Counted from the first letter of the stretch, positions 5,709 through 64,000 are shown. The stretch: DNA of 64,000 nucleotides from a virus (IMGVR_UViG_3300045988_151219:1-64000), one strand, 5' to 3'. Program-made: numbers and translations. Notes: generated by a model from the letters alone, not told the origin.

Positions 5709-5730
5709 TATATTATTACTCCTTTAGAAA

Positions 5731-6171: not shown

Positions 6172-6249
6172 ACGAATATTCTTTAAATCAATATCAGGAA
6201 TATTTGAAAATCCATAGAAAATTTCATCATGTACAGTTAATTTATGCCA

Positions 6250-19142: not shown

Positions 19143-19709
19143 TTAAAATTCTAATATAACAGCTATCTGAATTTTTAAATCAGCATCTCTACTTGTTATT
19201 GACCTGTTATTTAAAATTTCAGTATATCCTAAATCTTGAACGTCACTTGGCAATAAAGCATCTTTAGTAATGCCTGTTTTTGGTTTCAAGCCTACCTGCA
19301 CAGAAACTTGAGCAAAAGGTTTTAGCGGAAGCTCTCCCGCTAAAACATTAGACATTATATAAACCCAGCGGCAAGATTCATTATGAGCATCACTTCTTCC
19401 AATTATCTTGAACTTTCTATTCTGAAATTCGATAATAGAAGCTCCTGTTGCATCGTCTTTAACCGGAACTACCAGCTGTTTTGTCTGGACTCTTTTATAT
19501 CCCCACGGTTCTTCTAAAACATCAAAGTATTTAGGTATAGGAACTTTAGAAGCTTCCCAGTCTTTGGAATGTCCAAATCCCCAGTACAGATTATTCTTGT
19601 CGAAAAATTCTATTGCTCTATTAACATGATAAGCTTTTACAGTAGATACAATAGATTTTACAAGTAACGGAGATACTGATTCGCCGTTTGGTAAAATGTT
19701 ATCTGGCAT
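19143..19709 (-). CDS. hypothetical baseplate-associated protein
   Basis: 188-aa ORF packed between the gpI-like gene and the large structural gene. Confidence 0.55.
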   Translation of the reverse strand: MPDNILPNGESVSPLLVKSIVSTVKAYHVNRAIEFFDKNNLYWGFGHSKDWEASKVPIPKYFDVLEEPWGYKRVQTKQLVVPVKDDATGASIIEFQNRKFKIIGRSDAHNESCRWVYIMSNVLAGELPLKPFAQVSVQVGLKPKTGITKDALLPSDVQDLGYTEILNNRSITSRDADLKIQIAVILEF

Positions 19710-19711
19710 TG

Positions 19712-20779: not shown

Positions 20780-20788
20780 GTAAATACC

Positions 20789-48572: not shown

Positions 48573-49961
48573 TTAGTTTATCTGGGTAAGAAAGCTATTT
48601 AACCTTGTATGATTTTCGTTAATTGAATTGATTGTTTCTACCTTTTGAGGCTTATTAACTATTGACTCATTAACTACTGTCGTTTGGTAATATGCTTTCG
48701 CCCCATAGTCAAAATTTGATTTCTTTTTGACGCTCTTCTTTATTTTAGGCTTTGAGATAACAGGCTTTACAGACTCTACTATCTTTTCCTCTTTTTTAGA
48801 AAGCTGCGTCTTTAAATTCTTTATTTGCTTATTTAAAAGCTTTTTGGTTTCGGTAGATTCTTCTATCTTAGAAAAATAAGTGGCTTTTAACATAGAATTT
48901 GATTCCTGTAAAAAGTCTATCTCTTTACTAAGACTATCAATAGATTCTTCTAACTTCATGTTAGAAGCTATAGCAACATCAACTTCTTTAGATTTCTCGA
49001 CAAGTGCCAGCTTACTTTTAGAGATTTCTTTATTAAAGTGACTTGCCTGGCTGTCTATAGATTCTTTTAAATCTTTTATATCTTTACGATATGAAGAAAC
49101 TTGGTTATTTAGAGTCTGGATGTTGTCTGTAAGTGTAGAGATTTTCGCTCTAAGTGTAGAAATTTCTTCTTCACTTTCAAGTAATTTAGACTCTGTTATA
49201 ATATTTTCTTCAAAAAGATTCTCGTAAGACTCGTCTAAAATCTCTTTGTCAGAAGTGCTGTTTTTGATTTTAGCGTCTATCTTACTTTTAATAGAATCAT
49301 ATATATTAGAATCCATAGATTCAAATATCGGTTTTAATGATTTAATATCCGATGAAGTCGCTTCATCAAGATATTTATTCAATGTGTCAATAAATGTAGC
49401 ATTAGACGATTCATTGACCGGAGAAAGTCTTGAAGTAGAAAAGCCAGGATTAGGTACAAAGTCAAATCCTTTAAAAACATAGTTATCTTCATCAGGATAA
49501 CTTATACCATCTCTAACGGTCATTGACCCTCTGGCTCTTGCAGAAATACCCATTTTACTACCATACTTTATCATGGTATATACCATTCTTCCTGCTGGTG
49601 TATTGAGTATGTCGGCTCTTCCCCACAAGACTTTTTTAGCTTCATCCCACCATAATTTAATTACATTATGGGATACTTTATTTAAATCAATATCAAACCG
49701 TTCTTCCGGATGTGATAATTCTCCGAATAATGTACGGTTTTCCATTAATTCAATAGTGGTTGGATAGTTACGTATCTTATTCTCTACTAAAGAAAAAGTG
49801 TAACCCCGCATATTGTTATTTATTTCATCAACTGAAATAAACGGACCCTCAACGGAACAAAGCACAGCATCGTTAGGTACGTTACTTTCAGTAGATTCAC
49901 ATATTTTTAATTGATGTACTTGTATATTGCTTAAGTATTGTAATTCTTTATCTGTAGGCAA
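48573..49961 (-). CDS. prohead core protease (T4 gp21 / S77-like) fused to a coiled-coil scaffold region
   Basis: 462 aa. FGELSHPEE...IKLWWDEAKKVLWGRADIL...GSKMGISARARGS parallels T4 gp21 ALGELNHP...DMWWKGNDVYGRARVI...GVSSRGLGS. The C-terminal half is heptad-rich (LRAKISTLTDNIQTLNNQVSSYRKDIKDLKESI). Confidence 0.8.
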   Translation of the reverse strand: MPTDKELQYLSNIQVHQLKICESTESNVPNDAVLCSVEGPFISVDEINNNMRGYTFSLVENKIRNYPTTIELMENRTLFGELSHPEERFDIDLNKVSHNVIKLWWDEAKKVLWGRADILNTPAGRMVYTMIKYGSKMGISARARGSMTVRDGISYPDEDNYVFKGFDFVPNPGFSTSRLSPVNESSNATFIDTLNKYLDEATSSDIKSLKPIFESMDSNIYDSIKSKIDAKIKNSTSDKEILDESYENLFEENIITESKLLESEEEISTLRAKISTLTDNIQTLNNQVSSYRKDIKDLKESIDSQASHFNKEISKSKLALVEKSKEVDVAIASNMKLEESIDSLSKEIDFLQESNSMLKATYFSKIEESTETKKLLNKQIKNLKTQLSKKEEKIVESVKPVISKPKIKKSVKKKSNFDYGAKAYYQTTVVNESIVNKPQKVETINSINENHTRLNSFLTQIN

Positions 49962-49998: not shown

Positions 49999-52230
49999 TT
50001 AGGTTCTAATTAATCTTTGTTTATATCCCGAATCGTACTTGCGAATTTCGTTGACTGAAAAATGTTTTGTCACTACCCAAATTAATTTATTCTTATTCCG
50101 CCTAATATATGATAAAGAAGTTGATGAATCGTTTCCGAAAAATTCACCGTCAGTAAATACAATTATGCAGTCTGTCTTCTGATTTACTCTTTTCTTTACC
50201 ATCTCTACCGCTGTAGAAAAGTCCGTTCCACCCTGCGGATATTTCGCATAAGCTGCAGCAACTCTACCATACAGACCCCTTAAGGTTGTGTAGTGTTCCC
50301 AATAATAATCTTTGTCAGACGCCCAATATAAAGCTTCGACCTTCAAATTATGTTTGATTATTTTACTTATATTATCTATTTCCGAAATAACTAAACGATA
50401 TTTATTTGCAGACATAGAACCCGAATTATCAAACATTAAAACTATACGTCCTATATAAGATTCATCAGCTGATGAACCAAACGCTCCTTCAAGTCTTCTG
50501 GACGGGTCATTAGGTCTATACTCTTCTTTTACGTTTAAATAATTGGTAAGTAAAGCTCTTAATTTAACTTTCCAATTAGATAAATTCTGATTAACTTTCA
50601 GCGGCTTTTCCATAATAGGTGAAGAAGCCTTCAACGTTTTCTTAGCCTTTGCTAAAGAACTATTTGAGTCTTCATCATCTTTTACAATTCCAGCTTCTTT
50701 TAATTCTCTTAATTCATCTTGGTCTTCTTTACCTTGTTCATTATTTGTATTGTTCAAAATCTTTTCTACTACATCTTTTAAATCTTTTTGTGACATAGCC
50801 GGCATAGATGAATTAGATTTAGACTGTCTAACTAAAATGTTACGCATAGATTTAGGTATAGATGAATTTCCGCCACTTGAAGAGTCACTGCCAGAAGAAC
50901 CACTTTGAGAATCTCCAGCTTGAGAAGTTGTACCCGAACTACCGCTATCTTGCGAATCTCCTTTGTTACCTTTCATATCATTCTGGCTTAAATCTCTTCC
51001 TGTACTTGAAGAGTTTCCACCATTACTACCTTGAGATGAATTATTTCCGTTTTGACTTTGTTGCGAACTTGATGAACCGCCACTCTGTTGATTTTGCTGG
51101 GAATTTCCGCTCTGTTGACGTTGCTGTGAGTTACCACCCTGCTGATTATCTTCCGTATCTACATTGTTACCGTTAGATACTATTTGTTTTTCATTTCCAT
51201 CTTCATCAACCATGGAAATATTATCAGAAAATCTCTTGATAAAATCTAATATTTTATGAGTTACTATTACAGAATTATCTTTATAGTATTCAAGTAATGA
51301 GTTTGAAATAGAAAAATTAACTCCTAAATAGCCGTCAAAGTCAGTCACTTTAGATAAAACATTAGAAGGTAAAGATACTTTTCCATCTAACAGCTGTTTA
51401 AAAGCTTCTCTTAAAATCTTATAGAATTTGTCTTTTGTAAAATCTACTTTACCTAAAGAGAAAAACATGTCATTAGAAACGCCTGTTATCATCGGAGACT
51501 TTAACAAAACTTTTTCTAACGGCAAGTTTATACAAGCATCTTCTACTATATTACATAAAGTATGAGGATATTTTTTAAAAGATTTTTGAAATAAATGTCC
51601 TCTGTAGATGTGGCTCATCTCATGAGCCAGCAAAAGAACTATTGAATTTTTGGCTTCATTTACTATTAAATCAATAGCTCTTTTGTCAGTTAATTTTAAA
51701 TATCTTATATATTCATTGGTAGACTGATAAAGTGCCTGATAAATAATAAATTCCGGATTGTACCAAAGCTCAACGTCTCCTGATAAAGTCCTGGTAACAC
51801 ATAAAGTCGGTATCTTCCTATTTACTTTCTGCGGAATGTGATTAAAGATAATAGCATATTGAGGAAATAAAATATTTAATCTCTTTACAGCAGCATTAAA
51901 CAATTCAACGCCTAACTGCGGATTAACTTTTTTCATTTCCTCTTTTACTATATCAGCAAGCTTTTGTCTTATTTTTAATGTGTCTACATCAGCACTATAA
52001 TTATTAGATAAAGTAGCTTCTTCTTTTGAGCCTTCCGGAGAATAAGCTACTCCTATTGAAAAAGTATTGTCCGGATTTTCTGTGTTAGTATCTTTAGCAA
52101 ATATAAAGTCTATATCTAAAAAGTTCTTCTGTTTTTCAGAAACCAGTTTATTAAGCTCTTGTCCGTCTTTACTAACAAACTTTTCTTTTATATTTTGTAT
52201 ATGTCCTACTATTTCTTTAAAGTTATACAT
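49999..52230 (-). CDS. HExxH metallopeptidase-like / von Willebrand A domain protein with central Q/S/G/N low-complexity linker
   Basis: 743 aa. LLLAHEMSHIYRGH contains the HExxH motif. The C-terminal domain has RIVLMFDNSGSMS (MIDAS DxSxS) and IIVFTDGEF. The architecture resembles DUF2201_N plus VWA-like proteins that pair with MoxR ATPases. Confidence 0.75.
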   Translation of the reverse strand: MYNFKEIVGHIQNIKEKFVSKDGQELNKLVSEKQKNFLDIDFIFAKDTNTENPDNTFSIGVAYSPEGSKEEATLSNNYSADVDTLKIRQKLADIVKEEMKKVNPQLGVELFNAAVKRLNILFPQYAIIFNHIPQKVNRKIPTLCVTRTLSGDVELWYNPEFIIYQALYQSTNEYIRYLKLTDKRAIDLIVNEAKNSIVLLLAHEMSHIYRGHLFQKSFKKYPHTLCNIVEDACINLPLEKVLLKSPMITGVSNDMFFSLGKVDFTKDKFYKILREAFKQLLDGKVSLPSNVLSKVTDFDGYLGVNFSISNSLLEYYKDNSVIVTHKILDFIKRFSDNISMVDEDGNEKQIVSNGNNVDTEDNQQGGNSQQRQQSGNSQQNQQSGGSSSSQQSQNGNNSSQGSNGGNSSSTGRDLSQNDMKGNKGDSQDSGSSGTTSQAGDSQSGSSGSDSSSGGNSSIPKSMRNILVRQSKSNSSMPAMSQKDLKDVVEKILNNTNNEQGKEDQDELRELKEAGIVKDDEDSNSSLAKAKKTLKASSPIMEKPLKVNQNLSNWKVKLRALLTNYLNVKEEYRPNDPSRRLEGAFGSSADESYIGRIVLMFDNSGSMSANKYRLVISEIDNISKIIKHNLKVEALYWASDKDYYWEHYTTLRGLYGRVAAAYAKYPQGGTDFSTAVEMVKKRVNQKTDCIIVFTDGEFFGNDSSTSLSYIRRNKNKLIWVVTKHFSVNEIRKYDSGYKQRLIRT
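50860..51177 (-). repeat. low-complexity coding tract (Q/S/G/N-rich, about 105 codons) inside the vWA protein
   Basis: QQGGNSQQRQQSGNSQQNQQSGGSSSSQQSQNGNNSSQGSNGGNSSS...GDSQSGSSGSDSSSGGNSS. These are imperfect short repeats at nucleotide level. Confidence 0.8.
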
Positions 52231-52235
52231 AAACT

Positions 52236-52568
52236 TTATTCCTCATAAGAAAATCCGATTCCGTTATATCTCGGTCGGCCTAAAGCTTCTATTGTGAGCT
52301 TATATAAATCTTTACTTCTAATCACTACTATATCAAAATCATATATTGTGTGATTAACATTCTGGCGATATTTAATTTTAAATCCGCCTGTAAATTTAGT
52401 GCTGTTATTTACATACCGCCCATCAGTCGCAATAGCAGGAACGAAATATTTCTCATAATCATTCCTGCTCACGTCTATAGAAATGATTTTATTACTGTCT
52501 TCTACTTCTTCTAAGTCAGTACGATAATCGATTGAATTAAGAAAAGATATAAGTACCTCTTTTAACAT
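52236..52568 (-). CDS. hypothetical protein
   Basis: 110-aa ORF between the AAA and vWA genes, with 1-5 nt spacers. Confidence 0.55.
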   Translation of the reverse strand: MLKEVLISFLNSIDYRTDLEEVEDSNKIISIDVSRNDYEKYFVPAIATDGRYVNNSTKFTGGFKIKYRQNVNHTIYDFDIVVIRSKDLYKLTIEALGRPRYNGIGFSYEE

Positions 52569-52569
52569 C

Positions 52570-55500
52570 TTATTTTGCTCCTTTATTAATATTAGCAGCT
52601 ACTTTAGCTTTGATTTCATCAGAAACTACTACCCCTACACTGTCCATAAGCTCTACCAGTAAGTCTGCTGTATCAAAAGCTTTATTAATAAATTTTCTAA
52701 AATATGTACTGTCTTTTCCTGTATAAAGCATATTAACTTTATATTCATTTGATGGAAGACTATTTAAGAAAGCATAAACAACTTCTCTATCATATTCTGG
52801 GTCTTTATTATCAAAATGGTCAATATACTGTTTAAACAAGCTATTAACAACTGAATATCTCTTTTCAATTACAGGTATAATAGAAATTTCCTGTTCTAAG
52901 AATTTGTTTAATATGTCTATTGATACGCAATCTTCTAAATCATAATGCTCTATTTCTCGGTCAGACACATTATTATAAAACTGTCCGAATTTAGAAGAAG
53001 CATCACTTCCTACAATATAAGTAAAAGCTTCTTTACGGTCACGCATAACTTCAATATCTATCTGTCTTGCAATAACCGCTAATCTCTGGAAAGTCCTATA
53101 AAGAGAATCATCTTCTTTTATACTATCAGAAGTATGAGAAGCTACTAATTCCTGGAGCGTTTCTGCTACTGATTGAGAATCTACCTGCTCCCCACCTAAG
53201 GTAACAGAATAATCCCCTCTGGCACCAGCCCATTTATGAATGTACTTCTTGACTGTATTGTAGACATCTACAAAATCAGTATCTTTTCCCTCTCCTGAAA
53301 TTAAATCAGCTACCTGTCTTTGTGTCTTTTCATCAGGGAACAATACAACTCCTCTAAACATAGAAGTTGATTTAGAGTTCTTTATAAATGTACTTAAGTC
53401 TTCCCACGCTCTGGTAGATGAAGAAGAACATTCTAATGACCGCTTTTCAACTGTATTCATAAAAGCAATAGCATCTTCCGGAGCTAAGTCATTAAAATAT
53501 TTTTGTACTTCCGGAGCAAATTCTGAATCTTTCATATACTTCTGGAAAGATTTTAAATCAAGCTCATCAAATTCAGGTTTCTTTAATACTGAAAATCTTG
53601 CTGAAAATGCAGGGTCAAGAGGTTTAACGTCAGAATAAGCTTCCCCTACGTTACAAGAACCTACAACTTTTACTCTGTCTTTATTGAATTTTATACCTCT
53701 AAATCTGTGGTCTGAAATAACTTCTAAGATAGCACTCATAAGAGTCGTATCAGAAAGTCTATTCATTTCATCAAAATGAATAATAACTTCCTGTCCTACG
53801 TCCGCTGCTTTTCTTAGCTTATAATATAATTCTCCGTCACAAGCTTTTATAGTAGTCTTTTCAGGCAAGTTAAATTCAGACAGCTTAGGCAACTCATTTA
53901 GTTCAGACTCATTTAAATTAAGTCCGCCTAAAATATAACGGGCTACAGATACAGTAGTAGGAATACCCATCAAGTCCAGTCTATCTTGTTCAGCTAAGTT
54001 TACATCTATCAGTAAAGCCTTTCTTTTATTTGCTATTGCTTTTAACCTTGAAGATTTACCCATAGATGAAGCTGTTTCAAGCAGAATAGGTGTATTAGAA
54101 TCAATACCCTGTTCTATAAAATCAGACATAACATCATCAGAAAGTTCAGCTTCTTTATATCCTAATTTAGTCAGATAGTCATAGAAGTTTTCTCCACCTT
54201 CTCCTAAAAGACCCATAAAGATATCTTTCTTAATTACTTTATCGGGATGTTGATAAAGATAGTTTGAAGCCATTTCCCACGTGCGGAAGTTAGGATAAGA
54301 AGTTTCCCCAGCTTTGTCAGTATCCCCTGTATCATTATAAACTTTCTCTACTAAAGAAAAATCATAATACTGTGTTGGGAATTTTTCTAAGTATTCTCTT
54401 ACTACCGGATGAATGTTAGTCCTGTCTCCTTCAGACTTTTCATCTGCCCAGGCTTTCCACGGTTTAATAACATCTTCCGGCAAAATAGGAATAGGTTCAA
54501 AACGGTCATTAAAAGCAGCATCGTCTGAAATTCCTACTTGATATATTGACTGTAAATCTTCTTCTTTTCCTACGGCATAGTTAGAAGCTGCTACAATCTT
54601 AGCATACTTCATAGGGTGACCCATAAATTCCTTGTCCGACAGTATCTTTGTAAAAGCTTGTCTGATAGGTGGATAACATCTCATAAGTTCGTCCAGGAAC
54701 AGAACAGGCGGTTTTGCTCCTTCTTTAAACTTATTCAATATTTTTGTGAGTCTTTCTTTGTCATAGTCTTCTGCGGTTTCTATTTTCTCTTCTATAATAG
54801 GAATAGATTTACGGCAGAAATCTACGTATGAATCTAAGCATTCTATCATAAAAGAAGCAGGAGCTGAATTTGCCACTATCTCTGAAAGGTCCTCTAAATC
54901 TTCTGTATTATTTACTTTAGATAAACCTTGTAAGTCAAGACGTGATAAGAAAGCTAACCGAATATCTACTAAACGATAGCCATACTGGTCAGCTAATTTC
55001 TTAACCATAGCAGATTTAGCTACCCCTGACTGCCCTAAAAGCAAAGGTATTCTATTCTGCGGTTTATCATTTTGAAAATAAACATCAAGTCTACTTACAT
55101 ATGTAGGGGTACCTGATTCTACATTCCCTACACTGTTTTTAAATTCATCATCATCTACTTTGTTAAATAGGTCTTTGAGATTTGCTTCATCAATAGTCAT
55201 AAGTTTCATAGGTTTCCTTTGGATAGATTCATTAATATAATTATTAAAAGGGTGGTCATCAGTTAAAGAGTCTTTGTGATTTAAGCAGAAGTCTAAATAG
55301 TAAGAGTCCGAAACTCCCCCTATTTCCTGTCCGTCTATATCAGAATAGACTACAGTCGTTCCGCTTTCTGCCGTATCTACATATGAGTTTCTTAAAACAT
55401 CGTTATAGTCTACTTCGACTATCATTGCTTTAATTTTCTCCATATGCTTTTTAATCGAATATACGACAAAATCAGGTTCTGTCATTACATAAAAATTAAA

Positions 55501-55683
55501 TGGACGAACCTGATATATAGTTGGTGATTTTATTGAGCTTACTACTGATGAAGTAAACTCATCTGATAGATTGTTAAATTGTGAGGCTTTAGCTGTCAGT
55601 AAAAGATTATTTGTATCAAAGTCTACTACTTTGTTTGATATAACGGGACATTTTTCTAAGAAAGGTAAATAATCTTGTACCAC
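52570..55683 (-). CDS. MoxR/dynein-type (AAA_5-like) ATPase with two AAA modules
   Basis: 1037 aa. Module 1 has Walker A LLLGQSGVAKSAMV, then LVDIRLAFLSRLDLQG and Walker B VLFLDELMRC. Module 2 has ETASSMGKSS, LIDVNLAEQDRLDLMG and Walker B IIHFDEMNRL. Confidence 0.8.
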   Translation of the reverse strand: MVQDYLPFLEKCPVISNKVVDFDTNNLLLTAKASQFNNLSDEFTSSVVSSIKSPTIYQVRPFNFYVMTEPDFVVYSIKKHMEKIKAMIVEVDYNDVLRNSYVDTAESGTTVVYSDIDGQEIGGVSDSYYLDFCLNHKDSLTDDHPFNNYINESIQRKPMKLMTIDEANLKDLFNKVDDDEFKNSVGNVESGTPTYVSRLDVYFQNDKPQNRIPLLLGQSGVAKSAMVKKLADQYGYRLVDIRLAFLSRLDLQGLSKVNNTEDLEDLSEIVANSAPASFMIECLDSYVDFCRKSIPIIEEKIETAEDYDKERLTKILNKFKEGAKPPVLFLDELMRCYPPIRQAFTKILSDKEFMGHPMKYAKIVAASNYAVGKEEDLQSIYQVGISDDAAFNDRFEPIPILPEDVIKPWKAWADEKSEGDRTNIHPVVREYLEKFPTQYYDFSLVEKVYNDTGDTDKAGETSYPNFRTWEMASNYLYQHPDKVIKKDIFMGLLGEGGENFYDYLTKLGYKEAELSDDVMSDFIEQGIDSNTPILLETASSMGKSSRLKAIANKRKALLIDVNLAEQDRLDLMGIPTTVSVARYILGGLNLNESELNELPKLSEFNLPEKTTIKACDGELYYKLRKAADVGQEVIIHFDEMNRLSDTTLMSAILEVISDHRFRGIKFNKDRVKVVGSCNVGEAYSDVKPLDPAFSARFSVLKKPEFDELDLKSFQKYMKDSEFAPEVQKYFNDLAPEDAIAFMNTVEKRSLECSSSSTRAWEDLSTFIKNSKSTSMFRGVVLFPDEKTQRQVADLISGEGKDTDFVDVYNTVKKYIHKWAGARGDYSVTLGGEQVDSQSVAETLQELVASHTSDSIKEDDSLYRTFQRLAVIARQIDIEVMRDRKEAFTYIVGSDASSKFGQFYNNVSDREIEHYDLEDCVSIDILNKFLEQEISIIPVIEKRYSVVNSLFKQYIDHFDNKDPEYDREVVYAFLNSLPSNEYKVNMLYTGKDSTYFRKFINKAFDTADLLVELMDSVGVVVSDEIKAKVAANINKGAK

Positions 55684-55695
55684 GATAATTTCTCC

Positions 55696-56250
55696 TTATT
55701 GCTGTAATAAGTATTTGAATAAATATTTAAAAGCTATTGAAACTTCTGTATCAAACTGCTTACTTAATGATATATTTCTGTTGCTTTCCCAGTCTATATC
55801 CATAAGTTCAAAGATAGGTTTCAGCCGCATATATACTGAAGGTGAATATGAAATCTGATACTGTCCTGAATCTGTTTTATATATACATTTCAACGCAAAT
55901 ACCAGTACTAAAACCTGAAACATTGTTACGACTGTCCGAATAAAAACATAGTCTTTATTCTGGTCATCTAAATAGTCCTGGTCTCCCACTTGCTGGAGTT
56001 CTTTAACCAGTTGCATAAACCTTTGATTCATGAAAATACGGCTCATAGCAGACCCGCCGGCATCTTGATACAGCTTTCTGATGTCTTCGATATCATCGAT
56101 ATCAGGATTATCCATAAGCTCTTTTATTTCATCATTATATTTCCTCAAAAGCGGAAGTACAATAACATCACTCTTCGGTCCAAAAGGTTTTTTAGACAAA
56201 AGCTTTCTAAAATATTTCTGGTAGTAAGTAGAAATCAGCTGTAACTTCAT
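55696..56250 (-). CDS. hypothetical protein with one central hydrophobic helix
   Basis: 184-aa ORF containing VVTMFQVLVLVFALKCIY. Confidence 0.55.
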   Translation of the reverse strand: MKLQLISTYYQKYFRKLLSKKPFGPKSDVIVLPLLRKYNDEIKELMDNPDIDDIEDIRKLYQDAGGSAMSRIFMNQRFMQLVKELQQVGDQDYLDDQNKDYVFIRTVVTMFQVLVLVFALKCIYKTDSGQYQISYSPSVYMRLKPIFELMDIDWESNRNISLSKQFDTEVSIAFKYLFKYLLQQ

Positions 56251-56278
56251 TGTTTAACCTCTCTTTGAATTAATTTTG

Positions 56279-57283
56279 TCAAATAATTGAAAGTGTAAAA
56301 TATCTCCTTAACAGAATCTGCTTTATAAGTGTTACTAAATTTATAATACGATATTTTTCACTTAGTAAATATTTCTTTCTCCCAAAAGGTTTTACTTCTA
56401 AATAAAAATCCTTTGGCAATAACTTACGTAAACTATCAGGAAGTATTGTTGTTAAATCTAAAAATCCCCTTGTTATTGAGTAAAAAGCTGATTTAGTGGC
56501 AATTCTTCCACCATCTAAAAACGCTATTGCTACTTCTTCTAAATTACTCTCCTTTAAAATTTTGTATGATTTAATATTATCTTTAGCACTATTATTTACT
56601 AAAATATAAAGCTGGTCTTGTTTTGTCGCCTTATATGTTAAGTAAGAAAATTTTCGTACGGGTATTATAGATTTTATAACATAATATATGTCTACCTTCT
56701 CTCCCTTTTTAGGCTTCACATATCTATATAGAATAGTAAGCACAGATTTATATAAATTTACATTCTTAACTAACAAAATTAACTTATCTACAACATTTAA
56801 AATATTGTAATCAACTCCGCTATTTAAAAGCTTCACCATCAACTGAAAAGCGTCTAAGTTTTCTTCTTTTAAGTTAAATAAGTTAAAATCCAAACTAAGT
56901 TTAAAAGCTATCAGTATATCCCTTATATTATTTTTATCGTCTTTAAAGTTTAAATAGTCTTTTAGCTGTTGGTCAGTTCCTACATAAACAGCTACCCCTA
57001 AACTTGGGTCAGTTAAATAAAAATTTCCTGATTTAATTCCATAAAATAACCCAAATAAAACTACATAAGGTTCGTCAACTTTTAACAGTTTAATATTTAA
57101 TTTAACATATTTACTAAAATTGTCAAAAGATACTATATGTAATCCAGTAAATTCTGGAAATATCTTCTGTATTTTAAGTAGATAGTCAGTTTTTTTACTT
57201 ATATCCTTATAAAATTTAATTACAGCCTCTTGACCGTTAATGCAAGAAATATTTAATTTGAAAGTTTTTTCTTGTACATTCAT
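56279..57283 (-). CDS. paralog 6 (most divergent member of the array)
   Basis: 334 aa. LFGLFYGIKSGNFYLTDPSLGVAVYVGTDQQLKDYL and DAFQLMVKLLNSG align to the family core. The C-terminal tail is not conserved. Confidence 0.7.
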   Translation of the reverse strand: MNVQEKTFKLNISCINGQEAVIKFYKDISKKTDYLLKIQKIFPEFTGLHIVSFDNFSKYVKLNIKLLKVDEPYVVLFGLFYGIKSGNFYLTDPSLGVAVYVGTDQQLKDYLNFKDDKNNIRDILIAFKLSLDFNLFNLKEENLDAFQLMVKLLNSGVDYNILNVVDKLILLVKNVNLYKSVLTILYRYVKPKKGEKVDIYYVIKSIIPVRKFSYLTYKATKQDQLYILVNNSAKDNIKSYKILKESNLEEVAIAFLDGGRIATKSAFYSITRGFLDLTTILPDSLRKLLPKDFYLEVKPFGRKKYLLSEKYRIINLVTLIKQILLRRYFTLSII

Positions 57284-57319
57284 TGGCAGTACCCTTCTAC
57301 AAACAGTTTATATTTTATA

Positions 57320-58404
57320 TTATACTAATTCTTTCATTAGTCTTTTTGAGATTTTGTTAAATATTACAGAAAATCGTCTACTATTGTGAGTATTATGAAT
57401 AAACTTATTTGCTTGAAACTCATGACCAAAATTAATTTTATTAGGGTCTGTAGGAGATTTTATAGAAGTCGCTTTATTAAAAGTTTCTTCCCCCATTAAA
57501 TCTTTTGCCGGACTTATTAAATCTTGAAAAGTAACTTCTGTCGTTTTTTTCTAAAGAAGGACTTTGTTTAATGAAATATTCTGTTAATTCCACCTTATTT
57601 ACATAATTAAGAATTTTATTATAGTGTTCTGAATCAGAATCATATTGGCTTAACGGAACATCAGAAGAAGCTCGGTATAAATAATATTTACAAGCTGATG
57701 AAGATTCTATAGGAACTATAGTAGAATTTTTATAAAATACTCTTTCTATATCTGAATAAAGGTTTGTTTTTTCCGCATTCAATTTTAAAATCCGTTGAAA
57801 GAAAAACTGAACTTCTATAACTTCTTTAGCTAAATTAAACAGCTTATATACAAAACCATCAACACTACTTGGGTCTGATACACTCTCTACAGAATGACTA
57901 CATAACAAGTCTATTAATAACTCAAAATTATCTACTTCTTTTTCTATTTCTTCATCTTTATTTAAAAAATATTCTATATTTCCTGTTAGCTTATAAGCCA
58001 TAACTTTATTAATAAAATCTTGACTTAAATCTACTCCTAAATAAAGAGATAAATCAGCTAAAGTATTAAACGGAACTGCAATACCAGTCTCCGGTTCAGT
58101 TAAATAAAATATTTCTGTTTCCGGAACATAATACATATTAAACAAATAAATATAATTTACCGTTTTGTTTTTTCATCCCAGTAAAGACAAAATAACTTTT
58201 CATTTTCATCTACTTCAAAGGGAAAGTCGGTAACATTTTCCGCTTTTCTTGTAGTAGATTTAAACAATAATATAAAAAGCATATATATTTACAGTCATTA
58301 TCTCTATTTGAGTTCAGTAATTTATCTATGAAAGTTAATTGTCTTACAAAACTAATTATTCTACGGGATACTTCACCAGTATCCAAAAAATAAAGTTTCT
58401 TCAT
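57320..58404 (-). pseudogene. paralog 5, disrupted by at least three frame changes
   Basis: The fragments are in family order but in different frames:
- MKKLYFLDTGEV... (track ORF 58210..58419).
- ...KAENVTDFPFEVDENEKLFCLYWDE.
- KNKTVNYIYLFNMYYVPETEIFY... (track ORF 57477..58145).
- ...TTEVTFQDLISPAKDLMGEETFNKATS...RRFSVIFNKISKRLMKELV, with its stop at 57320-57322.
Two of the switches sit in plus-strand T runs, 57544..57550 and 58168..58173. Confidence 0.7.
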
Positions 58405-58405
58405 G

Positions 58406-59440
58406 TTAGGACACCTCATTTAAAACAGATTTAGATATTTTATTAAAAATTACAGAAAATCTTCTATCCAGTAATCCTCTTTTATATAAAAAATTAGTAT
58501 TCATATCAGCATAATCCCCAGCATATTTTTCTTGCCCTGGTTCTATTTCAACCTTATTAAATGAATTTAAAGCTCTTTTACTTATATGAAGCTTTAACGG
58601 CTCTAATAAATCTGCCGCTGATTTTTCCGCCGATTCTATTGACGATGAAGTTTTTATGAAATACTCTTTTAGCTCTTCTTTATTTAATGCTCTATATAAT
58701 GAATTAGACACGTCATTTGTAGTAATATTAATATCCACTACATTATCTAAAGACAATTTCTTTAAATCATCTAACTTATTTGCAAAAATAAACAAATAAG
58801 GAACAAAAGAAGCAGATATACCGTATAATTTTATATTAGTTTGCCAGTCTTCCAGTAAAGAAAAAAATCTTCTTGAATTATTAACTAATAAAGTACAAAC
58901 AAAAACAACATCCAATAAAGTTTTCTTGACTTGATTGATGTCTACCTGGCTCTCTTGTAATGAATTTTGCAAACATGAAATTAAAAGCTGGAAATTATCT
59001 ACGTCTTCATCATCTCCGGTTTCAAAAAAATTTGCTATGTTTCCGGATATTTTATAAGCTAAAGCTTTTTTAAAGAAGTCATTTCTTATCTTAAACTGCA
59101 ACTTTTTTTCAAGAGTCGTTAGAGACAATATAGGAATAGCTCCAACATCTGATTTATTAGCATAAAAAATTTCTGTGTCCGGTGAATAGTACATACCCCA
59201 AAGACATATAAAGTTACGTGGATTTACACAAGTAACAGCTTCTCCTCGTGTTAGGACCCTTATACTATTTTTAGTTAAGTTATGTACTATAAAAAATAAA
59301 GATTTAGTTTTAAAGAAAGCTTCATATCTTTTTATAACCGAATTAACAGCCTTTATAGAATGAAACACATTATCTAAATTCTGTTCATCTGATAGAAAAG
59401 TATCTAAATGAAATTCAAAAAGAGTTTTTTCTACTCCCAT
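58406..59440 (-). CDS. paralog 4
   Basis: 344 aa. LWGMYYSPDTEIFYANKSDVGAIPILSLTTLEKKL; DNFQLLISCLQNS; RRFSVIFNKISKSVLNEVS. Confidence 0.8.
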   Translation of the reverse strand: MGVEKTLFEFHLDTFLSDEQNLDNVFHSIKAVNSVIKRYEAFFKTKSLFFIVHNLTKNSIRVLTRGEAVTCVNPRNFICLWGMYYSPDTEIFYANKSDVGAIPILSLTTLEKKLQFKIRNDFFKKALAYKISGNIANFFETGDDEDVDNFQLLISCLQNSLQESQVDINQVKKTLLDVVFVCTLLVNNSRRFFSLLEDWQTNIKLYGISASFVPYLFIFANKLDDLKKLSLDNVVDINITTNDVSNSLYRALNKEELKEYFIKTSSSIESAEKSAADLLEPLKLHISKRALNSFNKVEIEPGQEKYAGDYADMNTNFLYKRGLLDRRFSVIFNKISKSVLNEVS

Positions 59441-60442
59441 TTAACTTACCTCTTTAAGTAGTATCTTAGATATTTTATTGAAAATTACTGAAAACTTCTT
59501 ACAATATAATATACTCATTTCTCCATAATACGTTGTATAAAGCTCTTTACTTTGTTTAGCATCCGCTTCTATTTTACTATCGGCTGTATCAAATAAAGAA
59601 AGAGTTCTCTTAGAAACTTTATCTTGGATAGGCTTTAAAAAATCCTTTATTGATTTATCAGCTACATCAAGAGACGGTGAAGTTTTTATAAAATACTCTG
59701 AAAGCTCTTCTTTATTTAAAGCTTTATATAAAGGATTAGTTAAATTAAATTCACTTGTAGTAAATTCATGTTCTACAAAATATGACGGATAATCAAGAGA
59801 AGCTTTTCTAAAATCATCTATATTATCAATACCTAATAGAGTATTTTTCTGAAACGTACATTCTATAGTTTTAAATTCTTCCTCTTCAACATGTTGTGCA
59901 AAATCTTCCATAAAAGCACCAAACGTAAAAAGAAATCTTGTCATTGCATCTGTAAATTTAAGTAACCTATCTTTTATTTCTTTTTTGTCTGTGATAACCT
60001 CAACGTTCATATTCTGTAAAAGATTAACCATTAAAGAGAATGTATCCGATGTTGTATCTTGAATATCAAAAGATAATAAATCATCTATATTACCTGTTAC
60101 TTTATAAAGTAAAACTCTCTCGGTAAAATTTTGATTAATAGGATATTGCAAATATTTACTTAAAGCTTTTAAAGAAACAACAGGTATCGCTATCTTCTCT
60201 GATTTATTAGCATAAAAAATTTCTGTGTCTGGTGAATAATAAGCTCCAAATATCTTTAAAAAATTTTGAGGTCTAATTTCTTCTTCCCAGCTTAAAATTA
60301 CATAATCATCATGGAAATTTTCATATTTAAAAAGATATTCCATATTTAAATCTTTTTTTAGTCTTCTTAGTGGAGAATTTACTATTCTTACTCCACCCTT
60401 TATATCAGAAGTAGGATAATTTACTCGATAAGACCGTTTCAT
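59441..60442 (-). CDS. paralog 3
   Basis: 333 aa. IFGAYYSPDTEIFYANKSEKIAIPVVSLKALSKYL; DTFSLMVNLLQNM; KKFSVIFNKISKILLKEVS. Confidence 0.8.
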   Translation of the reverse strand: MKRSYRVNYPTSDIKGGVRIVNSPLRRLKKDLNMEYLFKYENFHDDYVILSWEEEIRPQNFLKIFGAYYSPDTEIFYANKSEKIAIPVVSLKALSKYLQYPINQNFTERVLLYKVTGNIDDLLSFDIQDTTSDTFSLMVNLLQNMNVEVITDKKEIKDRLLKFTDAMTRFLFTFGAFMEDFAQHVEEEEFKTIECTFQKNTLLGIDNIDDFRKASLDYPSYFVEHEFTTSEFNLTNPLYKALNKEELSEYFIKTSPSLDVADKSIKDFLKPIQDKVSKRTLSLFDTADSKIEADAKQSKELYTTYYGEMSILYCKKFSVIFNKISKILLKEVS

Positions 60443-60443
60443 T

Positions 60444-61460
60444 TTAACTTACCTCTTTAAGCAGTATCTTAGATATTTTGTTGAAAATGACTGAAAACTT
60501 TCGGTCAGTTAATCCTCTGCTATATTTTGCTCGTACTGCATTATAACCTATGTCTCTCTTTTCAACTGCTTTATCGAAAGCCGAAATTGTTCTTCCGCCT
60601 GTCACATCTTTTACAAACTCTAAATGTTCTTTCATTGATTTTTCAGCCACATCAAGTGAAGAAGAAGATAATAAGAAAAAGTCAAATAGTTCTTCTCTAT
60701 TAAAAACTTTATTTTCTACTATGTCTTCTTTATCATAAGTAGAATCTGTACATGAAGAATAAAGATAAGATTTACTATTAAATCTTTTAACAGGCTCCGT
60801 GCAAGATGGACCTAACCAATACTCATAATTAAATAAAAAAGTAAACCTACGTTTTATATTATCTACAAGGACTACAAATTTTTTTAAAATTCTGGTCGCT
60901 TCATTAATATCTACATTAAATATTTCAGAATGATTCTGAAGGAGATTAATTAAAAGCTCGAAATTATCTGTATCCTTAACATCTTTATTTTCATATAAAA
61001 AATAATCCAATTTCCCTGATATTTTAAAGGAAACGGCTCTTTTTACAAAATCATCTGAAATTTTAAAATTTAAAATCCTTTCAAAAGTTTTTAAATTAAT
61101 AAAGGGAATAGCTCCCCCACCTTTAGGGTGATTGAAATAAAATATTTCTGTTTCAGGTGAGTAATATAAGCTAAAAAGTTTTATTGCATTAGTCGGCTTA
61201 ACTATTTCATCCCATTCAAATTTAACAGCTCTAACATTCATATCTTTTCTTTGTATACCTGGTTGAGTTGCCAACGCACTTTCCGGAACATCTTCTAAAT
61301 TAACGATTCTATAAGTAAATAAACAATCACTCTCTGCTATTTGATTTTTTAACTCGTTCCCCCATTTATAAAAAAAGTCACTTAAAAAAGAACTTAAAGT
61401 ATGCCACCAGTTTTCTACATTCACATAATCTGGAAAAAATCCGTATATTTCTCTATGCAT
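60444..61460 (-). CDS. paralog 2
   Basis: 338 aa. LFSLYYSPETEIFYFNHPKGGGAIPFINLKTFERIL; DNFELLINLLQNH; RKFSVIFNKISKILLKEVS. Confidence 0.8.
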   Translation of the reverse strand: MHREIYGFFPDYVNVENWWHTLSSFLSDFFYKWGNELKNQIAESDCLFTYRIVNLEDVPESALATQPGIQRKDMNVRAVKFEWDEIVKPTNAIKLFSLYYSPETEIFYFNHPKGGGAIPFINLKTFERILNFKISDDFVKRAVSFKISGKLDYFLYENKDVKDTDNFELLINLLQNHSEIFNVDINEATRILKKFVVLVDNIKRRFTFLFNYEYWLGPSCTEPVKRFNSKSYLYSSCTDSTYDKEDIVENKVFNREELFDFFLLSSSSLDVAEKSMKEHLEFVKDVTGGRTISAFDKAVEKRDIGYNAVRAKYSRGLTDRKFSVIFNKISKILLKEVS

Positions 61461-61464
61461 TTAT

Positions 61465-62571
61465 CTAAGCCCCTCCATTCAAACTTACCTCTTTTAATAG
61501 AGATTTACTTATTTTATTGAAAATTACTGAAAATTTACGATTAAGTAATTCATTCCGTCTATCAAGCTGTCCTAAAGGTTTATCTATAAAAGCATCTATT
61601 TTATCTAAATTAGATTGGTCAGCTGCCTTATTAAAGAAAGAAGCAGCCCTGCTACTTACTCTACTTTTTAACGGTGTAACTAAATCTTTAAAAGCTTTTT
61701 CCGCACTTTCAACAGAATCAGATTTATCTAAATAGTAGTTAGATATTTCTTCCCTATTTACAGCTTTTTGCAAATTTAACAGTTCTTTTTTATCTTTAAA
61801 AGCATATTCCAGTCTATAAATTAAAGTGGAATACGAATAAAGAGTTTTACTTACAGCAGAAAAATTATTACTGTCTACCATCCCTTCTTGTGAAGCTGCA
61901 AAAGAAGGAGCAATTTCTTTATATAAAGAAGTGTTAAATTCATACATATCCAAAGTAGACATGTAAATATGATAGAAATAAACCTGTAAAGCTGATACTA
62001 AATTTACCATCTTATAAAGAAGTTTACTTCTACTTTTTGTATCTAAAGCACTGTTATAACTATCAACACCTTTAGTCAACATTTGCACTAAAAGCGAAAA
62101 AGAATCCGCATCTTGAATTTCAGACTCTTTAAATAAAGTCTCTAAATCTCCGGTAATTTTATATGATAAAGCTCTGTTTTCAAAATCAGTTTCTAAAGGA
62201 AGCTCTAAATACTCCGCTAAAGTTTTTAACTTCATAATCGGCACAGCATAATCATATTTAGGGTCGTTTAAATAAAAAATATTTGTGTCCGGAGAATAGT
62301 ACATACTAAAAATGTAGATACTGTCTTTCGGCTTGACAGTCTCTTCCCATTCCAGTTTTAAAAAACTTAATTCTTCATCAATAGTATCATATGGAAAATC
62401 AGGGTCTTGTTCCGCTTGTTTAAAAGTTAAGAATTTTATGTTAAATAAGAACTCTCCTAAATAAAGGTTCATAGTATTTAAAATGCTTTTAAACAAGTCT
62501 TCAAATTTAGACTTCTTATAAAAAATATTCGATTCTCCAGTACCTAACGATAAATATAAAGTTCTTTTCAT
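61465..62571 (-). CDS. paralog 1
   Basis: 368 aa. IFSMYYSPDTNIFYLNDPKYDYAVPIMKLKTLAEYL; DSFSLLVQMLTKG; RKFSVIFNKISKSLLKEVSLNGGA. Confidence 0.8.
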   Translation of the reverse strand: MKRTLYLSLGTGESNIFYKKSKFEDLFKSILNTMNLYLGEFLFNIKFLTFKQAEQDPDFPYDTIDEELSFLKLEWEETVKPKDSIYIFSMYYSPDTNIFYLNDPKYDYAVPIMKLKTLAEYLELPLETDFENRALSYKITGDLETLFKESEIQDADSFSLLVQMLTKGVDSYNSALDTKSRSKLLYKMVNLVSALQVYFYHIYMSTLDMYEFNTSLYKEIAPSFAASQEGMVDSNNFSAVSKTLYSYSTLIYRLEYAFKDKKELLNLQKAVNREEISNYYLDKSDSVESAEKAFKDLVTPLKSRVSSRAASFFNKAADQSNLDKIDAFIDKPLGQLDRRNELLNRKFSVIFNKISKSLLKEVSLNGGA

Positions 62572-62588
62572 CTTAAGTTCCTTTCATC

Positions 62589-63011
62589 TTAAGTTCCTTT
62601 TACAAATACTGAAACGTCTTTCTTTGAGATTAAAAATGATTGGTCTTCTTCTACTTCAAGACTGTAAATAAAATCATCATAAAAATAATTTGACTTCTTT
62701 ATCAAAACTTTCTGATATATTATACTTTTCTTTCCGTGAGGACTTAATCCAAAAAATTGTTTGGGAAGCTCTTTTAAAGCTTCTATACTATTATTATACG
62801 ATGAAATAAAAAATAGCTGGTTTTCAGTAGCGTAAATTACTTCTTTCCCTATTATCAATTTACCCACTTTATCGTATGAGATAGTCTTCCCGATAACCTC
62901 TCTAACTCTATTTCTATGCGTGTAAACATAGTCTCCTATATTTACTAAATAGATAGGCAGTCTCCCTCTTGATGTTTTAACTAAAGTAGAAGCTGAAAAA
63001 CAGTCTCTCAT
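62589..63011 (-). CDS. free-standing degenerate Hint (mini-intein-like) domain protein
   Basis: 140 aa. MRD-CFSASTLVKTSRGRLPIYLVNIGDYVYT is intein block A with Cys1. ATENQLFF has Gln in place of the block-B His. C-terminal FIYSLEVEEDQSFLISKKDVSVFVKGT matches the blocks F/G pattern but lacks the His-Asn terminus. Confidence 0.65.
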   Translation of the reverse strand: MRDCFSASTLVKTSRGRLPIYLVNIGDYVYTHRNRVREVIGKTISYDKVGKLIIGKEVIYATENQLFFISSYNNSIEALKELPKQFFGLSPHGKKSIIYQKVLIKKSNYFYDDFIYSLEVEEDQSFLISKKDVSVFVKGT

Positions 63012-63301
63012 TTAAAATATTCCCCGAATAATTTTTTATGTATATTAAGAACTTCTTCCTGTGAAATCTTTCCCTGTATAAAATCATTTAATGTATTAGC
63101 CTGTATCTTTACATCTAAAATTTCATACATAGATACTGATTGATAAGAAAGCTCTATTAAAGAATGTGTTAAGAATGATGAAAGATACTTGGCTAAAGTT
63201 AAGTCGTTAGGCTGCTCTTTGCCATTAAGAACTTTTCTAAGTCCTATATAGAAAGCTTTAGTCCTCATTGATTTAAAAAATTCCTGCTTAACGTTTACCA
63301 T
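63008..63301 (-). CDS. hypothetical protein
   Basis: 97-aa ORF, overlap-coupled on both sides. Confidence 0.5.
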   Translation of the reverse strand: MVNVKQEFFKSMRTKAFYIGLRKVLNGKEQPNDLTLAKYLSSFLTHSLIELSYQSVSMYEILDVKIQANTLNDFIQGKISQEEVLNIHKKLFGEYFK

Positions 63302-64000
63302 TACATTTCATCTCCCATCTCTTCTTCAGGAACTCCCTCTTCAAAATCGTCTGATAAATCCTTCTGAATAATAGAAGGTGTTTTTTCTTCTTTAGGCATT
63401 ATATTATCCCATAACTCTTTGAGGTTAAGCATCTTAGCTAAAATATATTCATACAAAGCGTCTTTGTCTATCTTCTTAAAGAACTCTTCATCTTCGGAGA
63501 TAATAGATTTTAAAGTTTGTGCCATAGTCAACGTGTCATTTAATGTAGTTGACCTGTCATTTTCCTCTGCTGAATAAAGTCTCGGAAGTACAATTGTAAA
63601 CTTATTGCAGTCAGCTTCTCGCCCTTGTGTATATAAATAATAATCACACAAAGCTTTAATGCCTACAGCTAAACATGCCTGGCAATGTCTAACCATTCTA
63701 CTATATCTAACGTCTATCTTCAAAAGGCTCTGATTGCCTATTCCGCCTGAAACATCTTCTGCATCTCCTAAATAAGCTTTCGGTATCTTTAAAGCTCCGA
63801 AAAGTTTTGTTCTATAATAATCTAAATCAAGAAGTGCTTTAATATCCATGTCTCCGCCAACAGTGTCTACAGTAACATCACCTTTACCGTTTCGTGTAGG
63901 AACATATATAGACCCACCTAACGGTAACGGCTGGTTGCGACTGGAATACTTCTTTCCTGGAATATCAACAGTTTCTGTTTTAGTAATCGCTTTCTGAAAT
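63301..64000 (-). CDS. putative portal protein, C-terminal part (gene starts beyond the window)
   Basis: The track ORF starts at an internal Met (63849), but the frame stays open to 64000 (...QKAITKTETVDIPGKKYSSRNQPLPLGGSIYVPTRNGKGDVTVDTVGGDMDIKALLDLDYYRTKLF...). It has an acidic C-terminal tail, DDFEEGVPEEEMGDEM. The call rests on position upstream of the protease and capsid genes and on general resemblance, not on a search. Confidence 0.5.
   Translation of the reverse strand, partial: FQKAITKTETVDIPGKKYSSRNQPLPLGGSIYVPTRNGKGDVTVDTVGGDMDIKALLDLDYYRTKLFGALKIPKAYLGDAEDVSGGIGNQSLLKIDVRYSRMVRHCQACLAVGIKALCDYYLYTQGREADCNKFTIVLPRLYSAEENDRSTTLNDTLTMAQTLKSIISEDEEFFKKIDKDALYEYILAKMLNLKELWDNIMPKEEKTPSIIQKDLSDDFEEGVPEEEMGDEM

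Follow-up and report, generated by a model that had tools for sequence, protein, structure and literature searches.

A tandem array of orphan paralogs with a shared C-terminal tail in the head operon of an uncultured T4-like phage lineage

Downstream of the gene for a T4-type portal, an uncultured virus carries six collinear homologous units on the minus strand, which fill positions 56279-62571 of a 64,000-nucleotide (nt) stretch of DNA (IMGVR_UViG_3300045988_151219:1-64000; the whole stretch is called the window below). What is this gene family, how did it come to be present six times, and why do proteins that otherwise differ so widely end in almost the same peptide? The six genes are a lineage-specific expansion from one ancestral gene of the head-morphogenesis block, and our comparisons firmly indicate that peptide-level selection holds all members to one basic amphipathic helix at the C terminus, referred to here as the tail. 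Tentatively, we favor a reading in which the paralogs are partly redundant late proteins that the shared tail docks to one partner, most likely as cargo of the prohead.

The window has a G+C content of about 30%, all of its genes lie on the minus strand, and the phage belongs to an uncultured low-GC T4-like myovirus lineage. A Bacillota host is plausible, because the nearest cultured phages by major capsid protein (MCP), at 29-35% identity, are Bacillus phage SP-15, Listeria phage LIS04 (Thornevirus), Bacillus phage HSE3, and a Streptococcus phage. We compared the window with a related strain of about 94% nucleotide identity (L001), with a 138-kb ENA contig (L002) and a Logan assembly of a different accession (L003), which match the window at 100% identity across 17.7 kb and 8.1 kb, and with a 17-kb contig whose MCP is 80% identical (L004). 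The wider lineage, gathered via homologues of an AAA+ ATPase encoded downstream of the array, included L146 (a 198-kb contig, MCP 44% identical) and L147 (164 kb); L144, L145, and L148 end just upstream of the AAA+ gene.

We numbered the copies p1 to p6 in the order of transcription. A hidden Markov model (HMM) of the family matched the intact copies at E values from 4e-85 down to 4.5e-128, and p5 by its two larger pieces at 4.6e-71 and 3e-19, while none of the remaining open reading frames (ORFs) of the window scored below E 0.19. The array and the paralogy in the original prediction, which described six minus-strand genes of about 330 to 370 amino acids (aa), are borne out by this result, but p5 is a pseudogene. 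The tally in the window is four fully intact copies, one without a tail (p6), and one pseudogene (p5). Mutual identity is 27-38% among p1 to p5 and 16-22% between p6 and the others, and the core motifs listed earlier, YYSP[DE]T[EN]IFY, AIP..L..L..L, and D.F.L[LM]..[LM]L, all occur in the paralogs. The genes abut closely: the spacers of 0 to 4 nt reported before hold for four junctions (4, 1, 0, and 1 nt) but not for the 36 nt ahead of p6. The proposal that the 3' block carries the Shine-Dalgarno sequence of the next paralog was also confirmed, as the final codons of the tails (AAAGAGGTAAGTTAA or AATGAGGTGTCCTAA) give a GAGG to the following copy. No RNA element or tRNA was found in the array region, promoter-like counts equaled those of shuffled sequences, and a terminator scan gave 12 terminator-like sites against 6.9 ± 2.6 expected, none of them at a gene junction.

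The tail, [RK][RK]FSVIFNKISKxLLKEVS, has a mean pairwise identity of 0.90 over the last 17-19 residues, against 0.13-0.53 elsewhere in the proteins. The next most conserved blocks reach 0.52-0.53, and the N-termini are the least conserved region, with 0.13-0.24. The pattern of conserved ends and variable centers suggested at the outset is therefore right for the C terminus and wrong for the N terminus, which is the most variable part. At the DNA level the tail corresponds to a 58-nt block that recurs five times at the 3' ends of the genes, in agreement with the earlier count of five tails in six genes; a tail HMM run against the six-frame ORF set of the window recovered these five tails only. 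Modeled as a helix, the tail has a hydrophobic moment of 0.55-0.60 and a net charge of +3 to +5. The C-termini of 61 other minus-strand ORFs in the window have a mean moment of 0.33 and a 95th percentile of 0.55.

Codon usage shows at which level this conservation acts. Positions with matching residues in a pair of paralogs are encoded by identical codons in 43-83% of cases within the tail and in 52-65% outside it. Synonymous codons are therefore no more conserved in the tail than outside it, so that selection acts on the peptide, and the nucleotide conservation of the 58-nt block follows from peptide conservation and strong AT codon bias, with no need for a function in DNA or RNA. On these codon counts, conservation of the tail is at the protein level and not at the DNA level. 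That the block is instead a DNA or RNA element, such as a recombination site or a regulatory RNA, that drives cassette shuffling is very improbable, and we disfavor the idea. A direct repeat of 58 nt present five times, with p2 and p3 copies that are 95% identical, is what such an element might look like, but codon identity at conserved residues is equal inside and outside the tail, the block has no match in Rfam, order and content are unchanged in L001, and the distant homologue P0009 of L004 keeps the peptide pattern and not the DNA. Shuffling by recombination between conserved blocks, part of the original prediction, is not supported, for like reasons: codon identity in the tail is not raised, the paralogs are old (16-38% identity), and their orthologues in L001 are collinear. 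Gene conversion was considered as a source of the tail identity and judged unconvincing; only the p2-p3 pair is mildly raised, with 15 of 18 codons identical.

Two of the copies are damaged. Three-frame translation of p5 shows its reading frame jumping through 1, 0, 2, and 0; alignment to its intact orthologue in L001 (366 aa) reveals indels of +2, -1, and +1 nt as well as a 3-nt deletion at the start. The broken p5 is identical in the independent assemblies L002 and L003. In p6, a 1-nt deletion near 56351/56352 shifts the last 25 or so codons and so removes the tail, and the frameshifted end has a hydrophobic moment of 0.40 without the basic amphipathic character of the tails. L001 has all six copies intact (363, 345, 333, 344, 366, and 345 aa); its p6 ends in a divergent tail, …EIFYTFNYLTKLIQREVKQ, with an ATGA overlap with the following gene, orf184. 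The damage to p5 and p6 is real. If the copies are partly redundant, as we propose, this would be why individual ones can decay. p1 also differs from L001, by a 19-nt insertion (window 61465-61485) that abolished the usual stop after …KEVS and added five residues. The same insertion yields a new GGAGGGG Shine-Dalgarno sequence for p2. At the junction between p1 and the preceding gene, orf140, a 16-18-nt tandem duplication (GGAACTTAAGATGAAA, 2.6 copies; window 62559-62600) creates a mini-ORF of four codons (MKGT, then stop) right ahead of the p1 start. L001 is without this duplication, and there the ATG of p1 lies 1 nt past the stop of orf140.

Copy number differs among the relatives, and the array is accordingly not invariant: there is one copy in L004, six intact ones in L001, six in the window of which four are fully intact, and probably four remote homologues in L146. 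The six orthologues in L001 follow the gene order of the window collinearly, and that of p2 (P0002) is 93% identical. In L004 the genes run in the order intein-bearing 1393-aa protein, portal, P0009, orf96, orf137, orf187, AAA+, orf100, a 736-aa protein, protease, and Gp23. P0009, the sole family member on this contig, still has the core motif, as FFGMYYSPETDYFY, and its tail (IQIVFKRIIKALSKAEK) is amphipathic.

L146 is more remote. Its order, with proteins given by their length, is portal, 151, 136, 152 (orf97-like), 176, 427, 203, 465, 204, 417, 390, 190, AAA+ (with an intein), 130, VWA, protease, and Gp23. The candidates are the proteins of 427, 465, 417, and 390 aa in the slot between portal and AAA+, which are mutual paralogs at 23-30% identity; interleaved with them are three proteins of about 200 aa that are paralogs of one another. 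The HMM of the window family matched the 465-aa protein with 18 bits (conditional E value of 1.8e-7) in an alignment that runs collinearly through the conserved core; of 2,000 shuffles, the best reached 9.5 bits. Comparison of the two families with hhalign returned a P of 0.004 for an alignment of 134 columns that pairs YYSPDTEIFY with GYYLDLSSGY, AIP with IP, and YK with ERFK; the reverse search, from the L146 family to the window family, was weak. We consider the large L146 proteins probable homologues of the window family, as judged by these profiles. They, too, end in amphipathic helices, and three of the four are net-basic; the character of the tail is shared by P0009, the L146 proteins, and one L147 protein, with the exception of the L146 390-aa protein, whose tail has a net charge of -1. 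In the same place L147 encodes proteins of 455 and 381 aa followed by one of 200 aa. Membership of the two larger ones in the family could not be demonstrated, as hhalign gave nonsignificant P values of 0.085 and 0.19.

Taken together, these comparisons firmly support a family that was ancestrally single-copy in a conserved module (portal, family gene, an approximately 190-aa protein with a segment resembling a transmembrane (TM) segment, double AAA+, an approximately 110-aa protein, VWA, protease, and MCP). The conclusion that it expanded independently in different lineages, that it evolves fast, and that its copies are individually dispensable is equally firm.

Nothing else in the head module diverges as fast as the family, whose identity between the window and L004 is the lowest, 22-26%. 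In the same comparison we found 80% for the MCP, 74% for the portal, 55% for orf97, 54% for the protease, 52% for AAA+, 40% for VWA, 32% for orf110 and for the Hint-like protein, and 28% for orf184. Between the window and L001, the ratio of nonsynonymous to synonymous substitution rates (dN/dS) is 0.07, 0.37, 0.14, 0.23, 0.39, and 0.21 for p1 to p6, and 0.00-0.12 for the neighbors (portal, orf97, orf140, orf184, AAA+, and orf110). Purifying selection is therefore present in the array but weaker than around it, and the rapid diversification proposed for the family is well founded. Nucleotide identity to L001 is 78-93% for p4 to p6, 95-99% for AAA+ and VWA, and 93-97% for the portal; by this measure p4 to p6 are a local hot spot of divergence. 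On the other side of the array, orf140 encodes a protein that is 100% identical in the two strains, with a dS of 0.01 against 0.3-0.5 in the flanking genes. It lies in a near-identical tract of about 700-800 nt (about 63000-62200), which suggests a recent exchange between strains.

Fast evolution, lineage-specific expansion, and decay would also suit nonstructural proteins of host takeover or anti-defense whose genes merely occupy a tolerant site in the head module, one that does accept unrelated cargo such as ribonucleotide reductase (RNR) genes and TnpB. We regard this explanation as quite unlikely. The position of the family is stable over deep divergence, and close coupling ties its genes to those of the late head proteins. 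Anti-defense genes are usually early, and neither PADLOC nor any other family collection gave a match. Of the roles put forward in the original prediction, host range and anti-defense gained no direct support, and virion cargo is still the one that we would favor.

Database searches leave the family without known relatives beyond this lineage. The family had no match in Pfam or PHROGs (at E ≤ 0.1), NCBIfam, or PADLOC, which also had none for orf184, nor in a sequence-profile search of the PDB. Megablast and tblastn against GenBank phages found no relative, and no cultured relative bears the family. A peptide-pattern scan of IMG/VR and the JGI metagenomes likewise gave no relative, and a degenerate DNA pattern of the tail gave lone chance matches in the same collections, none of which codes for a relative by tblastn. 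A word-indexed search of 5.8 billion proteins returned five clusters, all of this phage species, and a profile search run exhaustively over 1.84 billion representative proteins returned seven, namely, the six paralog classes and P0009 (E value of 1.1e-6). By these searches the family is firmly an orphan.

Structure prediction with AlphaFold2 (AF2) gives an outline of the fold. The model of p3, built from a 13-sequence alignment, has a predicted local distance difference test score (pLDDT) of 67.7 and a predicted template modeling score of 0.72; it shows an N-terminal alpha/beta domain at residues 1-120 (pLDDT of 70-88), several long helices, and, at residues 299-332, a terminal helix of which the tail is a part. 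The P0009 model is poor (pLDDT of 53.6), with the same order of secondary structure. Foldseek found no match to the p3 model in the PDB or BFVD (best E values of 0.16 and 0.3), so that the earlier statement that no known domain is recognizable stands for folds as well as for sequences. A hydrophobicity scan detected no TM segment in the large paralogs. The predicted structure bears on whether the paralogs decorate the outside of the capsid, each displaying a different body on one capsid-binding tail. The T4 protein Hoc attaches to the capsid via a conserved C-terminal region, and a shared terminal anchor with variable bodies would fit such a role, as would a metagenome of apparently gut type, to judge by the run accessions. 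Pfam, however, detected no Ig-like domains of the Hoc tandem type and no other adhesion domains in the paralogs, and the alpha/beta domain and long helices predicted for p3 and P0009 are atypical of decoration proteins. External decoration is improbable.

The array is part of a head operon. Transcription proceeds from portal through orf97, orf140, p1 to p6, orf184, AAA+, orf110, a VWA-like gene, and the S77 protease to the Gp23 MCP, after which follow neck, sheath, tape measure, and baseplate genes (Table 1). Placing the array between portal and head-maturation genes, as had been done, was correct for the module but not for the immediate flanks: orf97 and orf140 come before the array, and orf184, AAA+, orf110, and the 743-aa VWA protein come before the S77 protease. 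A separate scaffold gene of the gp22 type is probably absent from the phage. The MCP has a propeptide with a plausible I-Y-E/A cleavage site.

Table 1. Positions of the array, its tail blocks, and neighboring genes (window coordinates unless another contig is named)
Feature	Position	Strand	Description
Portal (T4-type, PF07230), C-terminal part	63301-64000	-	
orf140	62589-63011	-	Weak Hint-domain match, E 2e-4; N-terminal CFSASTLV
p1	61465-62571	-	368 aa, intact; HMM E 4.5e-128; tail, then 5-aa extension LNGGA
p2	60444-61460	-	338 aa, intact; tail RKFSVIFNKISKILLKEVS
p3	59441-60442	-	333 aa, intact, with tail; copy modeled with AF2
p4	58406-59440	-	344 aa, intact; tail RRFSVIFNKISKSVLNEVS
p5	57320-58404	-	Pseudogene in four frame segments, the last still encoding the tail
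p6	56279-57283	-	334 aa, most divergent, isoelectric point 9.6; tail replaced by 25 out-of-frame residues
p6 tail remnant	56247-56350	-	Out of frame, …EIFYTFNYLTKLIQREVKQ; in frame in L001
58-nt tail block, reference copy	59441-59497	-	Encodes basic amphipathic helix and Shine-Dalgarno sequence for next gene
58-nt tail block, other copies	61479-61536, 60443-60500, 58405-58462, 57319-57376	-	
orf184	55696-56250	-	Single copy; one TM-like hydrophobic segment, residues ~102-125
orf184 counterparts	L004 7584-8147; L146 4178-4789, 6247-6861, 9425-9997; L147 9388-9990; L148 659-1261		
AAA+	52570-55683	-	1037-aa MoxR-like double AAA+ ATPase; AAA_5 E 3e-7, PHROG 1297 E 3e-48
orf110	52236-52568	-	Between AAA+ gene and VWA gene
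VWA-like protein	49999-52230	-	743 aa; weak VWA_2 match; L146 counterpart has PF00092 VWA
S77 prohead protease	48573-49961	-	462 aa; C-terminal half of ~240 residues coiled-coil, scaffold-like

Downstream of the array, the arrangement of AAA+, an approximately 110-aa protein, and an approximately 740-aa VWA protein is kept across the uncultured low-GC T4-like lineage (MCP 34-80% identical). Counterparts of orf184 lie directly upstream of the AAA+ gene in L004, L146, L147, and L148, and all of them, including each of the three paralogs of about 200 aa in L146, have a TM-like segment (Kyte-Doolittle 19-residue mean of 1.7-2.4 for orf184 and its counterparts). The possibility that orf184 is itself a seventh tail-bearing or truncated family member was rejected, as neither the tail HMM nor hhalign showed similarity. 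Among cultured phages, homologues of the AAA+ protein occur in Rhizobium phages only, and there the gene is distant from those of the head. Inteins are present in some of the AAA+ homologues. HSE3 and LIS04 have an orf97 homologue right behind the portal and then RNR genes before the protease, with neither the AAA+/VWA pair nor a family member.

Some further observations concern this part of the genomes. In L147 an IS605-type TnpB gene (5600-6697) is inserted in the interval from portal to AAA+, and the Gp23 gene (19168-22274) is apparently split by inserted ORFs. Upstream of the portal and outside the window, L002 (1-2351), L001 (2346-6563), and L004 (121-4302) encode a protein of about 1,400 aa with an intein (PF14890, faint LAGLIDADG), possibly the large terminase by its position. 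Elsewhere in the window, a 1174-aa protein (15607-19131, minus strand) matches PHROG 877, of unknown function, from end to end with an E value of 2e-274, a much stronger database match than any other in the window.

The conserved neighborhood raises the possibility that the paralogs are clients or adaptors of a MoxR-like AAA+/VWA machine, with the tail as a handle for orf184, the VWA protein, or the ATPase; the output of such a machine need not be a virion component. RavA-ViaA, CbbQ-CbbO, and NorQ-NorD are pairs of the same kind, an AAA_5-type ATPase beside a VWA protein, but the ATPase of the window is a double AAA+ protein of about 1,000 aa inside a phage head module, and its link to the array is one of synteny. 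The order of family gene, approximately 190-aa protein, AAA+, approximately 110-aa protein, and VWA is maintained from 80% to 44% MCP identity where upstream sequence is available (L147 keeps it too, with putative family members), and cultured relatives without the AAA+/VWA pair are also without the family. In L004, though, two other genes stand between the family gene and the rest of the module. The window has one orf184-type neighbor and essentially one tail type for its six paralogs, and L146 has three proteins of about 200 aa and tails of two types, which suggests a relationship between the tail and an orf184-type partner. This is a lead only: the tail pattern in L146 also tracks the phylogeny of the paralogs and is thus not independent, and orf184 and the L146 proteins of about 200 aa are weakly similar (hhalign P of 0.009). 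orf184 is a candidate for the common partner of the tails. A role as clients or adaptors is rather unlikely and, after membrane targeting, comes next among the rivals of our preferred reading.

Our preferred reading joins the tail to the operon as follows. Each paralog would consist of a fast-evolving N-terminal alpha/beta domain, a helical middle, and the near-invariant C-terminal basic amphipathic helix of 17-19 residues. The tail would be a docking peptide for one common partner, so that all paralogs would be sent to the same place and each would deliver a different body to that shared destination, most likely the assembling prohead, with the paralogs as internal or ejected cargo. The copies would be cotranscribed and translationally coupled with the head genes and would be partly redundant. 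Both the docking role of the tail and which protein is its partner are things we infer. In favor of this reading, the array is codirectional with the block from portal to MCP, with junctions of 0-4 nt and Shine-Dalgarno coupling, and the prohead is favored as the destination because of the operon context and of precedents in the paralogs of SPN3US and phiKZ, the capsid-targeting sequence (CTS) of T4, and the coat-binding elements of scaffolds.

A close precedent is that of the head paralog families of SPN3US and phiKZ, which have from 2 to 20 members depending on the phage and in which gp53 and gp54 have the same 15 residues at one terminus (PMC5694885). The A and B families of SPN3US and gp93, gp94, gp95, gp162, and gp163 of phiKZ (PF12699) resemble the array in that each phage has several paralogs, copy number varies strongly, a terminal peptide can be identical, function is largely unknown, and there is a link to a T4-type prohead protease (PMC5694885). 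The array, however, has no sequence, PF12699, or PHROG similarity to them (none at E ≤ 0.1); its shared peptide is C-terminal where theirs is an N-terminal propeptide, it has no conserved cleavage motif, presence of its proteins in the virion is a proposal, and the phage, at about 138 kb, is not a jumbo phage as they are.

T4 provides the logic of one tag for many cargos that we propose here, as its 10-residue CTS suffices to load proteins into heads (PMC9026906). Like the array, the T4 proteins IPI-III and Alt combine a short conserved terminal peptide with otherwise divergent proteins in a phage with a T4-type portal, protease, and MCP. The T4 CTS, however, is N-terminal, about 10 residues long, and removed at L/I-x-E, whereas the proposed tag of the array is a C-terminal amphipathic helix of 17-19 residues; no T4-like N-terminal CTS with L/I-x-E was found in the paralogs, whose N-terminal identity is 0.13-0.24. 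The bodies of the array proteins are also mutually homologous and mostly acidic and their genes lie inside the head operon, unlike the T4 internal proteins.

C-terminal docking to the inside of an HK97-fold shell has precedents as well. Encapsulin cargo-loading peptides are short C-terminal peptides that dock to the inner face of such a shell; the shared C-terminal peptide and the Gp23 shell would fit this pattern, though the tail sequence is unlike the encapsulin peptides. The P22 scaffold, gp8, is reported to bind coat via a C-terminal helix-turn-helix, and the likeness would lie in a basic C-terminal helical element docking in the shell interior and in the helical C-terminal half of the p3 model. 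The array differs from gp8 in its single helix, its globular N-terminal alpha/beta domain, and its lack of sequence similarity, and this phage already has a coiled-coil, scaffold-like domain on its protease.

Several observations weigh against prohead cargo. That the paralogs enter the virion at all is something we infer. Cargo of T4 and phiKZ is normally processed, and the paralogs have no conserved prohead-protease site other than a terminal L-[KN]-E, two residues before the C terminus, the sole conserved [LI]-x-E of T4-type protease specificity. T4 internal proteins are basic, and five of the six paralogs are mildly acidic. The interval from portal to protease is open to nonstructural genes (RNR in HSE3 and LIS04, IS605 TnpB in L147), and the RNR genes in particular make position only weak evidence for a structural role. 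The p3 model, of moderate confidence, has no fold match that would point to a function. Lastly, a basic amphipathic helix at the C terminus next to a TM-like neighbor fits membrane targeting equally well.

Membrane targeting is the main rival. The paralogs would then be peripheral membrane proteins that act with orf184 at the cytoplasmic membrane and are not packaged, in membrane-bound initiation of the prohead or another late membrane function. The membrane-targeting sequences of MinD and FtsA are, like the tail, basic amphipathic helices at the extreme C terminus, and the tail has a high hydrophobic moment. TM-like segments are present in orf184 and its counterparts of four lineages, and head assembly in T4 starts at the inner membrane, with gp20 and YidC (PMC9026906). 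Amphipathicity suffices for membranes, however, so that a tail identity of 90% among paralogs of about 30% identity is left unexplained; the tail is longer than typical membrane-targeting sequences, those of the MinD/FtsA type being shorter and poorly conserved where the tail is near-invariant among old paralogs, and the paralog bodies have no TM segment. We consider membrane targeting unlikely. Sequence tools alone do not separate the cargo, membrane, and AAA+/VWA readings.

In a more far-reaching version, the array, orf184, the double AAA+ protein, orf110, and the VWA protein would form one undescribed machine in the head module throughout this uncultured T4-like lineage. The tail would plug swappable, fast-evolving paralogs into orf184 as a single TM-like adaptor, and the ATPase and VWA protein would then remodel or load them, either at a membrane-bound site of assembly or into the prohead, as a system of cargo loading driven by chaperones. 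We offer this as speculation and think it quite unlikely in this full form.

Tandem paralog families in large phages are already known. What is new here is the family itself, the shared peptide at the C terminus rather than the N terminus, the visible birth and decay of copies, and the fixed link with a MoxR-like AAA+/VWA pair in the T4-type head operon of an uncultured lineage. If the paralogs are not virion-associated, they are an ordinary fast-evolving family of orphan genes. Should the tail prove to target proteins to the head or dock them there, T4's N-terminal CTS would have a C-terminal equivalent as a second answer to one problem, and foreign proteins could be loaded into T4-like capsids of Bacillota-type phages with a tag that already exists. 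The locus lets us follow how one gene arose, multiplied, and decayed in a head operon that is conservative in other respects, and the fixed association of the array with the AAA+/VWA pair and with a TM-like protein suggests that head assembly in this uncultured lineage includes an accessory step not yet studied.

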